DNA of 64,000 bases, from the NCBI RefSeq assembly GCF_009931435.1, contig NZ_CP043414.1; one strand, written 5' to 3'. The notes beneath the pieces were generated by a model that did not search any database, was not told the DNA's origin, and saw nothing but the letters and a program-made list of their open reading frames with translations. Position 1 is the first letter of the stretch; the number at the start of each line of letters is the position of its first letter. The position numbers were made by a program, and so were the translations under genes. Shown here in pieces: positions 8,721 through 9,227 of the stretch. This DNA is from Escherichia coli (GTDB taxonomy: Bacteria > Pseudomonadota > Gammaproteobacteria > Enterobacterales > Enterobacteriaceae).

Positions 8721-8760
8721 ACAGCGAAGTGATTGTGTGGAACAATCACGAATCGCTGCT
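8721..8760. repeat. Copy 1 of a ~40-bp palindromic element (cagcgAAGTGATTGTgtggaACAATCACgaatcgctg)
   Basis: Nested inverted repeat seen in sequence; followed by T-rich tract. Confidence 0.6.
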
Positions 8761-8860
8761 TTTATTGTGAGAGCTTAATTAATTTTTCTTTTACTTTATA
8801 TGCGTCTTCGACGCGATCTTTTTTTGGATAAATCCATCATTAACAGGGGCAAGCCCTGTC

Positions 8861-8899
8861 CAGCAAAGTGATTGTCGGCAACAATCACGAAATGCTGCT
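8861..8899. repeat. Copy 2 of the same palindromic element (cagcaAAGTGATTGTcggcaACAATCACgaaatgctg)
   Basis: Near-identical to copy 1, 140 bp away, inside a ~900-bp AT-rich non-coding gap. Confidence 0.6.
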
Positions 8900-9227
8900 A
8901 CTAAAGATATAGTTTTCCTATACGTTTAAGAGCAAATGCTATATGTCAGATGGGGAATGCTATGTTTAAACATAGGATCTGAATTAAAAGTTAAAAGGAA
9001 AATAGATCTAACTATGTTCGAATACATTCGCTTATTACCTCATAGTAGTAAAATAAAATACAAAATGTCAGTTTTAGGGCGTAGCCGTGCGTAAGCATAG
9101 AGATAAATATCTTTTCAAAAAGAAGTTTAAAAATAATAAGTAAAAGCATGAAGAAAACACAGATATATTTGATTTTTACGCTTACGATAGAGTATTAAGC
9201 AGTAATAAATAAAAAAGGGAAAACACA

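Follow-up and report, generated by a model that had tools for sequence, protein, structure and literature searches.

What are two near-identical nested palindromes doing in a long non-coding gap of an Escherichia coli genomic island? The DNA analyzed here, referred to as the window, is a stretch of 64,000 nucleotides from contig NZ_CP043414.1 (assembly GCF_009931435.1), where a ROD21-like integrative mobilizable island is inserted in an E. coli background at the tmRNA gene ssrA. The gap (8312–9227) measures 916 bp with 27–36% GC and lies upstream of a gene on the − strand (7754–8311) for a 185-residue protein of the RepL family (Pfam PF05732, 25 bits against a gathering cut-off of 20.3). An earlier inspection without database searches, here called the sequence-only reading, had described the gap as AT-rich, non-coding and about 900 bp long, and had noticed in it two copies of a palindrome about 140 bp apart, each combining an inner and an outer inverted repeat. 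It proposed that they could be operators or iterons for the 185-residue protein, small structured RNAs, or remnants of a miniature mobile element. The gap, the gene, and both copies were located as described. We found that the palindromes constitute the sequence-invariant core of a non-coding DNA module with several hairpins, approximately 135 bp long, which is real, strongly selected, and specific to the ROD21-like island family. Judged from sequence comparison, this module most likely works as folded DNA in replication or establishment of the island, and not as a binding site for the neighboring protein. The two palindromes are as follows.

8722–8760, + strand: PAL1, CAGCG-AA-GTGATTGT-GTGGA-ACAATCAC-GAAT-CGCTG-CT, a nested hairpin with an asymmetric internal loop.
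8861–8899, + strand: PAL2, CAGCA-AA-GTGATTGT-CGGCA-ACAATCAC-GAAA-TGCTG-CT.

The repeat finder aligned the two copies over 39 nt each at 85% identity, with a start-to-start spacing of 139 bp. The inner repeat GTGATTGT-N5-ACAATCAC has 8-bp arms and is exact in both copies (8729–8749 and 8868–8888). When up to 3 mismatches were allowed, it was detected in the 64 kb only at PAL1 and PAL2; shuffled sequences gave a mean of 0.29 matches, and two matches were reached in 3 of 100 shuffles. The outer repeat of 5–6 bp, CAGCR/YGCTG, reads CAGCGA/TCGCTG in PAL1 and CAGCA/TGCTG in PAL2; the pair that is G-C in the former and A-T in the latter differs in a compensatory manner. Folding as single-stranded DNA gave −11.7 kcal/mol for PAL1 and −10.1 kcal/mol for PAL2, compared with shuffle means of about −4 (z = −4.4 and −4.0). 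The 108-nt stretch 8795–8902, which includes the intervening hairpins, gave −22.2 kcal/mol (z = −4.8). PAL1 belongs to the "copy-1 type" of related islands.

The palindromes are accompanied by further helices. A covariance model, R1, was built on the module from hairpin A to the TATAG hairpin, and its only matches in the window were the first two entries below.

8796–8929, + strand: full module of ~134 nt composed of hairpin A, TGGATAAATCCA, hairpin B, PAL2, and the TATAG/CTATA hairpin (R1 match of 141 bits).
8672–8794: partial module around PAL1 (R1 match of 47 bits).
8660–8683, + strand: upstream hairpin TGGTGCC-N10-GGCACCA followed by a T-rich run; its GTGCC...GGCAC core is kept in several island classes.
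8802–8825, + strand: hairpin A, GCGTC-TTC-GACGC followed by the T-run GATCTTTTTTT; its stem covaries, and it is terminator-like in a consensus scan.
8825–8836, no strand assigned: TGGATAAATCCA palindrome, nearly invariant alignment columns, which reads TTATCCAAA on the − strand.
8843–8859, + strand: hairpin B, ACAGGG-GCAAG-CCCTGT; its stem covaries (e.g., GGAG/CTCC and ACAGTG/CACTGT).
8908–8922, + strand: TATAG hairpin, TATAG-TTTTC-CTATA, within the conserved block ATATAGTTTTCCTATACGTTTAAGAGCAAATGCTATAT.
8312–8652, no strand assigned: Rep-proximal part of the gap, specific to the class of the adjacent Rep, including a promoter-like site (8497–8470, − strand) and an 18-mer direct repeat.

The upstream repeat and the hairpin between the copies had both been noticed by the sequence-only reading; the former was located at 8660–8683, and the latter exists in a slightly different register, with a 6-bp stem (ACAGGG/CCCTGT) and the loop GCAAG. 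The sequence TTATCCAAA matches 8 of the 9 positions of TTATCCACA, which we take to be the DnaA-box consensus. Several other motifs were considered and set aside. Look-alikes of a sigma-54 −24/−12 element at TGGCAC and of CRP, IHF, and GntR/FadR-type operators were judged unconvincing by eye, and the mini-hairpin motif GCGNAGC/GCGNNAGC occurs 101 times in the window, so that its three matches in the gap are uninformative.

The comparative alignment of the gap that the sequence-only reading had suggested was performed on 12 diverse islands, and the order of the blocks was constant. The GTGCC...GGCAC hairpin is followed by PAL1, a linker, and hairpin A with its T-rich run, then by TGGATAAATCCA, hairpin B, PAL2, and ATATAGTTTTCCTATACGTTTAAGAGCAAATGCTATAT; after a variable stretch comes a block around AGGGCGTAGCCGTGCGTCAGCAC, and then TTGATT-N17-TATTAA. 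The spacing of the PAL1–PAL2 pair takes values of 138–142, 164, 292–326, and 462–500 bp across islands. Extra modules originate by duplications of ~300–500 bp. A third module, which arose via a local duplication or insertion of ~460–500 bp, recurs in one island lineage (locus L002, 4571–4704; L039, 10903–11035; L045, ~3210–3340); it is also seen in metagenome loci such as L066–L068, L077, and L079. Other lineages have spacings of ~300 bp. In two islands, diverged extra modules comprising TGGATAAATCCA, hairpin B, and the palindrome lie in the gap between mobQ and traD (L011, 22316–22448; L044, 9028–9162); the corresponding region of the window holds no such copy.

The genome-wide search for further copies, also suggested by the sequence-only reading, was run on E. 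coli. Homologues of the gap were detected in 706 (megablast) or 778 (blastn) of 5,426 complete genomes, with a best identity of 91%. All of them are chromosomal, at 1–5 places per genome, and every place lies inside the ROD21-like island family with fixed position and orientation. The module was also found in about 20 other enterobacterial genera and in gut metagenomes. The palindrome arms are identical in Escherichia, Salmonella, Citrobacter, Klebsiella, Yersinia, Serratia, Pectobacterium, Dickeya, Brenneria, and others. Scanning species-representative genomes with the palindrome pattern gave 35 stretches, all from Enterobacterales except one 3.8-kb contig labeled as a Bacillota metagenome-assembled genome (L045, JAEYGZ010000029.1). 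This contig is an enterobacterial island fragment with DUF4756, Rep, and three modules, and its label is probably due to mis-binning or contamination. A metagenome scan anchored on the neighboring GGATAAATCCATCAYYAACAGG, with the palindrome excluded from the query, gave 86 stretches containing 63 distinct genuine modules, of which about 60 have conserved palindrome arms. Every locus with enough flanking sequence places the element in a gap beside a RepL-family or Rep-like gene, and its orientation relative to mobQ is identical in all 8 loci holding both. A phage collection queried with the rep gene and the gap gave no match. PLSDB, queried with the long sequence and with the 54-nt consensus palindrome at E ≤ 10, gave matches only in island-bearing records, which argues that the palindrome is not a mimic of a known plasmid origin of transfer (oriT) or single-strand initiation site (ssi). 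No description of the element was found in the searchable literature.

These data bear directly on the idea of a miniature mobile element remnant, or of a dispersed intergenic repeat of the repetitive extragenic palindrome, enterobacterial repetitive intergenic consensus, or miniature inverted-repeat transposable element type (REP/ERIC/MITE). Its nested palindromic shape is suggestive of such an origin, as are the local ~300–500-bp duplications that supply third copies in some islands. However, the window holds only two copies, the 1–5 places per E. coli genome are all chromosomal and within one island family, and position, orientation, and neighbors are fixed. The element is under strong purifying selection across many genera, and neither terminal repeats nor target duplications are apparent. 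A mobile-element origin is hence highly improbable. The sequence-only reading was right in treating the palindromes as a specific cis-element linked to the neighboring gene region rather than a dispersed repeat, although none of its three proposals gives the best account of them.

Constraint on the module was evaluated with 97 distinct modules, 29 base pairs, and 500 shuffles. Pairing was found in 96.0% of the cells versus 91.1% in the shuffles, and 16 of the 29 pairs exhibited changes on both sides versus 6.1 in the shuffles, none of which reached the observed value. When the 3′ partners were slid by 1–3 columns, pairing fell to 26–52%. Such two-sided changes were concentrated in the accessory helices (5 of 5 pairs in hairpin A, 4 of 6 in hairpin B, and 5 of 5 in the TATAG helix). 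The palindrome itself behaves differently: 4 of its 8 inner pairs never vary, and the others depart only rarely. A single compensatory arm variant, GTGATTAT/ATAATCAC, was observed in the L044 copy of the mobQ–traD gap, and the closing T-A pair is sometimes T·G. The loop is free, as 28 different loops were counted, and the 3′ spacer is variable (GAAG, TAAG, TCAG, AAAG, CAAG, GGAG, AACG, TGGG, and GAAT, among others). The fifth outer pair alternates between A-T and G-C, with about 20% of G·T or A·C intermediates. Among ~90 distinct palindromes, the spacers between CAGC and the inner arm are strictly asymmetric, with a left spacer of 2–3 nt and a right spacer of 5 nt, and the central gap can be 6–8 nt long. 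This combination is better explained by a folded hairpin containing an asymmetric internal loop than by a duplex site of dyad symmetry.

The type of mispairing was informative as to the nucleic acid involved. A transcribed RNA helix normally shows an excess of G·U. Across helices A, B, and the palindrome, 2,223 cells are Watson–Crick, 26 are G·T, and 34 are A·C, and the lack of a G·T excess over A·C argues for pairing at the DNA level and not in RNA. The TATAG helix is the only strand-asymmetric one, with 51 G·T versus 3 A·C, mostly at the outermost pair. The loop of hairpin A reads T-N(1–2)-C in 76 of the 97 modules, corresponding to G-N(1–2)-A on the − strand, which is a DNA mini-hairpin loop type (PMC13037366). 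This loop pattern hints at folding of the − strand.

An RNA function, as the sequence-only reading had also envisaged, could take the form of a small RNA made of PAL1 and hairpin A with the U-run as terminator, or of a long leader or antisense RNA controlling rep. Two terminator-like hairpins are present on the + strand (8675–8693 and 8801–8815) where 0.4 are expected, the accessory helices covary, and the wobble pairs of the TATAG helix (51 G·T versus 3 A·C) are those of the + strand; furthermore, an island-encoded small RNA is reported to be needed for mobilization of SGI1 (PMC9299015). Against these points, the Rfam 15 scan of 5300–12500 gave no match at E ≤ 1, and the promoter scan found no consensus promoter on the + strand of the gap. 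The palindrome stems are invariant in sequence instead of covarying, helices A, B, and PAL are not enriched in G·U, and the equivalent region of ROD21 has low RNA-seq coverage (PMC10655114). A structured RNA is accordingly rated as quite unlikely.

The relation between the palindromes and the adjacent protein was examined next to the Rep genes of related islands. These genes fall into at least two classes: class A comprises the Reps of the window, L001, L005, and L009, and class B those of L002, L003, and L004 with L006–L008. BLASTP detected no similarity between class A and class B, and identity within a class is 31–41%. Profile comparison by hhalign gave a probability of 6%, with a pattern of a winged helix-turn-helix (wHTH) plus INP/INS motif visible in both. 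Nevertheless, the arms GTGATTGT/ACAATCAC are identical beside class-A and class-B Reps, and in some islands Rep-like genes flank the palindromes on either side. For loci with a class-B Rep, the alignment to the window begins only at 8653, 8673, or 8722, that is, at PAL1 or just upstream of it. This indicates that the Rep-proximal 340–400 bp are class-specific and that the palindrome module is a shared cassette. Any RepL-specific sites are thus likely to reside in 8312–8652. An 18-mer direct repeat was observed there (TAGTTATACATTTAAGTA at 8334–8351 and TAGTTATCAACTTAAGTA at 8488–8505), the second copy of which overlaps the promoter-like site, and these repeats are possible RepL-specific sites.

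Operators or iteron-like origin sites bound by the 185-residue RepL-family protein were the first suggestion made for these palindromes. The element does stand always beside a Rep-like gene, and RepL-family wHTH proteins of pHW126-like plasmids autoregulate and bind repeats upstream of their own genes (PMC6854812; bioRxiv 10.1101/2022.12.05.519187). Classes A and B may also be remote homologues in view of the shared motif pattern, though at a profile probability of only 6%. Like plasmid iterons and operators, the palindromes are repeated sites in a rep-upstream region. However, iterons co-vary with their Rep, whereas the island palindromes keep identical arms beside Reps that lack BLASTP similarity, or share 31–41% identity with different putative recognition helices; it is the Rep-proximal segment that changes with the Rep class. 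The island repeat is moreover a palindrome with a free loop and not a direct repeat. The 2.7-kb autonomous plasmid pST106-2 encodes a RepL 57% identical to that of the window, but its sequence contains no palindrome within 4 mismatches and has TGACAG-type repeats instead; model R1 gave no match in 6 small RepL plasmids. Deletion of SEN1990, the homologous gene of ROD21, left island gene expression and the amount of total and excised island unchanged (PMC10655114). The gap upstream of SEN1990 was described by the same authors as long, non-coding, and poorly transcribed. Because identical arms occur beside dissimilar Reps and a RepL plasmid lacks the palindrome, the palindromes are unlikely to be operators or iterons of the adjacent protein.

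A partner other than Rep is favored by these comparisons, since the arms are identical while the adjacent Reps look unrelated and the relaxases are 56–86% identical. Such a partner could in principle recognize duplex DNA, organizing the vegetative origin of the island or regulating the divergent rep and downstream operons. It may be island-encoded (AlpA, an H-NS-like protein, or DUF4756) or host-encoded (DnaA at TGGATAAATCCA). Two invariant arms around a free loop are typical of operator half-sites, the adjacent DnaA-box-like TGGATAAATCCA is likewise invariant, two sites 139 bp apart could support looping, and the diverged copies of L011 and L044 lie upstream of traD. The geometry points elsewhere, as the outer boxes are asymmetrically spaced (2–3 versus 5 nt), the central gap varies between 6 and 8 nt, and the spacing of the pair is not fixed from island to island. 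Covariation of the flanking hairpins implies that folding matters. In addition, the promoter-like element of the downstream gene is ~280 bp away, and no candidate protein is conserved like the site (AlpA is 51–72% identical, and the product of the downstream gene, p89, is acidic). A duplex site for a conserved non-Rep protein is therefore possible but doubtful. As a palindrome-binding protein, p89 was rejected for being acidic and not universal among the islands.

We tentatively propose, with less than even confidence, that the module is a single-strand priming signal resembling ssi or single-strand origins (sso), read by a conserved and probably host-encoded factor. This proposal derives from its position, its shape, its DNA-like covariation, and its independence from the initiator class. 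The hairpins are stable as single-stranded DNA and selected (z = −4 to −4.8; 16 of 29 covarying pairs), and they are located beside a RepL-family gene. The single-stranded function, the priming role, and the host partner are what we infer from these data. During rolling-circle or strand-displacement replication of the excised island, or upon entry into a recipient as the transferred strand, the region would become single-stranded, and hairpins A and B and the nested palindrome would fold. A conserved factor, probably a host protein of priming or replication, would then recognize the folded palindrome through its GTGATTG/CAATCAC stem, asymmetric internal loop, and CAGC/GCTGCT base, and complementary-strand synthesis would begin there. 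The module would thus be an accessory origin element of the ssi/sso type, for which the second copy might provide redundancy.

This proposal can be compared with known RepL replicons. The rolling-circle plasmids of the pSN2 type, in which a double-strand origin and ssoA are present, have initiators of the RepL family (PMC5703833). In Gammaproteobacteria, pHW126-like plasmids have a RepL-related wHTH initiator beside a REP module, composed of an accessory ssi-like palindrome, a conserved region, iterons, and inverted repeats, and loss of the ssi leads to multimerization (PMC6854812; bioRxiv 10.1101/2022.12.05.519187). The window Rep is homologous to the Reps of such plasmids; it shows 33% identity to the Rep of a Col(IMGS31)-typed plasmid and 28–37% identity to the sole Rep of ~199 small plasmids, and a 98%-identical homologue is named "replication/maintenance protein RepL" in RefSeq. 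In pHW126, pIGRK, and pIGMS31, as in the island, an accessory palindrome stands beside the origin or rep-upstream region, and both form nested hairpins with an outer stem of the CAG/CTG type. They differ in that no sequence similarity was detected and model R1 finds nothing in these plasmids. The island element is furthermore duplicated, embedded in a larger multi-hairpin module, and common to islands with different Rep classes, and its function is putative. The small RepL plasmids pST106-2 (L047, 2568–2612) and pEA1 (L138, 355–398), otherwise unrelated, were observed to share a nested palindrome of their own with the conserved flanks AACCCTTCACA(A)GC ... TCAGCGTT. It probably corresponds to the "ssi-like palindrome" known from pHW126-like plasmids. 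The ssoA (palA) of the pSN2 family offers a second parallel, being a RepL-associated structured non-coding cassette that is exchanged between replicons with different initiators and whose sequence-conserved parts are thought to be read by the host machinery (PMC5703833). It is, however, a Firmicutes element, and its conserved RSB and CS-6 motifs are unrelated in sequence to the island module.

Several observations weigh against a priming signal of this kind. No sequence similarity to a known ssi or sso was found, either by R1 in small RepL plasmids or by the palindrome in PLSDB outside island-bearing records. The evidence on the folding strand is mixed: G·T and A·C show no asymmetry, and the loop of hairpin A gives a hint of the − strand, but transfer is inferred to involve the + strand. 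A protein that binds duplex DNA sequence-specifically would also account for invariant stems around a free loop, ROD21 shows no sign of autonomous replication in culture (PMC10655114), and the rare diverged copies in the mobQ–traD gap (L011 and L044) could mean a role in transfer or regulation. A bolder version of the proposal, which we regard as rather unlikely, is that the module represents a new island-specific establishment signal. A host factor would recognize the nested hairpin on the single-stranded island and start second-strand synthesis or RepL-driven replication, through a cassette that is shared across initiators and unrelated in sequence to described ssi or sso.

The 3′ flank of the palindromes also invites comparison with a relaxase site. 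The relaxase of the island, MobQ, has homologues in NES (PDB 4HT4, E = 4e-25) and R1162 MobA (PDB 2NS6, E = 1e-9). The substrates of the latter two consist of a hairpin directly followed by TAAGTGCG/CCCT (PMC4814116), and the MOBQ consensus is TAAGTGCGCCCT (PMC3832669). Upstream of mobQ in the window, a candidate oriT of the MOBQ type was observed at 16883–16913 (+ strand), 120 bp from the mobQ start, where the hairpin ACACTGC-GTA-GCAGTGT is followed by ATAGGTGGGCATTG; an additional inverted repeat lies nearby at 16799–16818. An alignment of the mobQ-upstream regions of 7 islands (from E. coli, Citrobacter, Buttiauxella, Pectobacterium, and Yersinia) exhibited a covarying hairpin stem with a GTA or GAA loop, of which the variants are ACACTGC-GTA-GCAGTGT, ACGCTCAC-GAA-GTGAGTGT, and ACACTC-GAA-GAGTGT. 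The sequence ATA(G/A)GTGGGCATTG directly 3′ of this hairpin is invariant. The same topology, an inverted repeat followed by TAAGTGCGCCCT between traD and mobA, is found in the oriT of a Morganella MOBQ plasmid. The region 16883–16913 is hence likely to be the oriT of the island. In the literature the oriT of ROD21 is "yet unidentified", and the long gap was speculated by the authors to be its site (PMC10655114).

That speculation leaves room for the palindrome to be a second MobQ recognition hairpin serving as an alternative oriT, a termination site, or a regulatory site. Its layout resembles the MOBQ oriT of RSF1010/R1162 and of pLW1043 NES, as an inverted repeat is directly followed by TAAGTGC, or more generally (T/G)AAGTGC on one strand, and the island does possess a relaxase of the cognate type. 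Copy 2 of many islands has the sequence ACAATCAC-TAAGTGCTGCTT, which matches the MOBQ consensus at 9 of 12 positions in the RSF1010 register. The palindrome lies on the inferred nick strand, and diverged copies occur in the mobQ–traD gap. However, the nick core would include the 4-nt spacer, which varies (GAAG, TAAG, TCAG, GGAG, AACG, TGGG, and GAAT), the GCG|CCCT nick core is absent with GCGCCC never present, and the 5′ CAGC pairs with the putative nick region. The element is also remote from the relaxase gene (PAL lies ~6.4 kb from mobQ, 8,899 versus 15,283), a much more canonical oriT candidate stands beside mobQ, and a functional nick site would be unstable in two direct copies. A relaxase site in the gap is thus improbable. 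The resemblance of the 3′ flank to a nick site was abandoned as the leading explanation, since the sample anchored without the palindrome shows a variable spacer and the better oriT candidate is beside mobQ. An analogy to the relaxase-primase of RSF1010 acting on ssiA/ssiB was set aside as well; the C-terminal 290 residues of MobQ look low in complexity, and searches of Pfam, NCBIfam, and PDB sequences revealed no primase domain.

In Salmonella, E. coli, Yersinia, and plant pathogens, the cargo of ROD21-like islands includes virulence and anti-phage functions, and the cis-acting sites of these islands have been undefined. The long gap now has a precise anatomy, in which two invariant hairpins within a covarying multi-hairpin module are separated from the Rep-specific part, and the canonical MOBQ-type oriT candidate beside mobQ came as a by-product. 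If the module is indeed an ssi/sso-type signal, it would explain how the island is established after transfer and would serve as a marker for finding islands. It is an incremental addition to the origin-associated structured DNA elements in a known island family, which brings no new principle and overturns nothing.

Assignment to this family is based on the gene set. ROD21-like (EARL-type) islands were defined in PMC6035254, and the genes of the window correspond to the conserved set of the Enterobacteriaceae-associated members, namely the P4-type integrase, an AlpA-type recombination directionality factor, the MobA/MobL relaxase, TraD, and a type IV pilin with a PilV-like protein. Their order is the same in annotated E. 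coli relatives. The copy in the window is inserted at ssrA and not at a tRNA-Asn gene, and its smpB–ssrA flank is 99.4% identical to E. coli. The neighboring genes are located as follows.

6135–6347: AlpA.
15283–16764: MobA/MobL relaxase, that is, the MobQ relaxase (Pfam 2.7e-54; NCBIfam MobQ, 250 bits).
17410–17715: TraD-like gene.
18107–18670: PilS pilin.
18723–20186: PilV-like protein.
23625–24854: P4-type integrase (Pfam/NCBIfam).
25019–25381: tmRNA gene (ssrA), from which the island extends leftward.
Also in the island: a lipoprotein gene and a gene for a DUF4755 protein.

Just downstream of the module, a gene of 89 residues (p89; 9228–9497, + strand) is directly preceded by the conserved promoter-like TTGATT-N17-TATTAA at ~9169–9198. 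Most islands have a homologue with 35–88% identity, and the acidic product has no match in Pfam or NCBIfam. On the other side of the gap, a DUF4756 homologue was detected at 7132–7599 (− strand) by tblastn with 87% identity to the intact gene of relatives; the list of open reading frames includes no intact one of similar length, and this copy is probably broken. The H-NS-family gene that follows DUF4756 in related islands is absent from the window. Beyond AlpA lies a 1,553-residue autotransporter-like reading frame (735–5396, + strand), which by eye is Ag43-like, and given its presence the island region may be composite.

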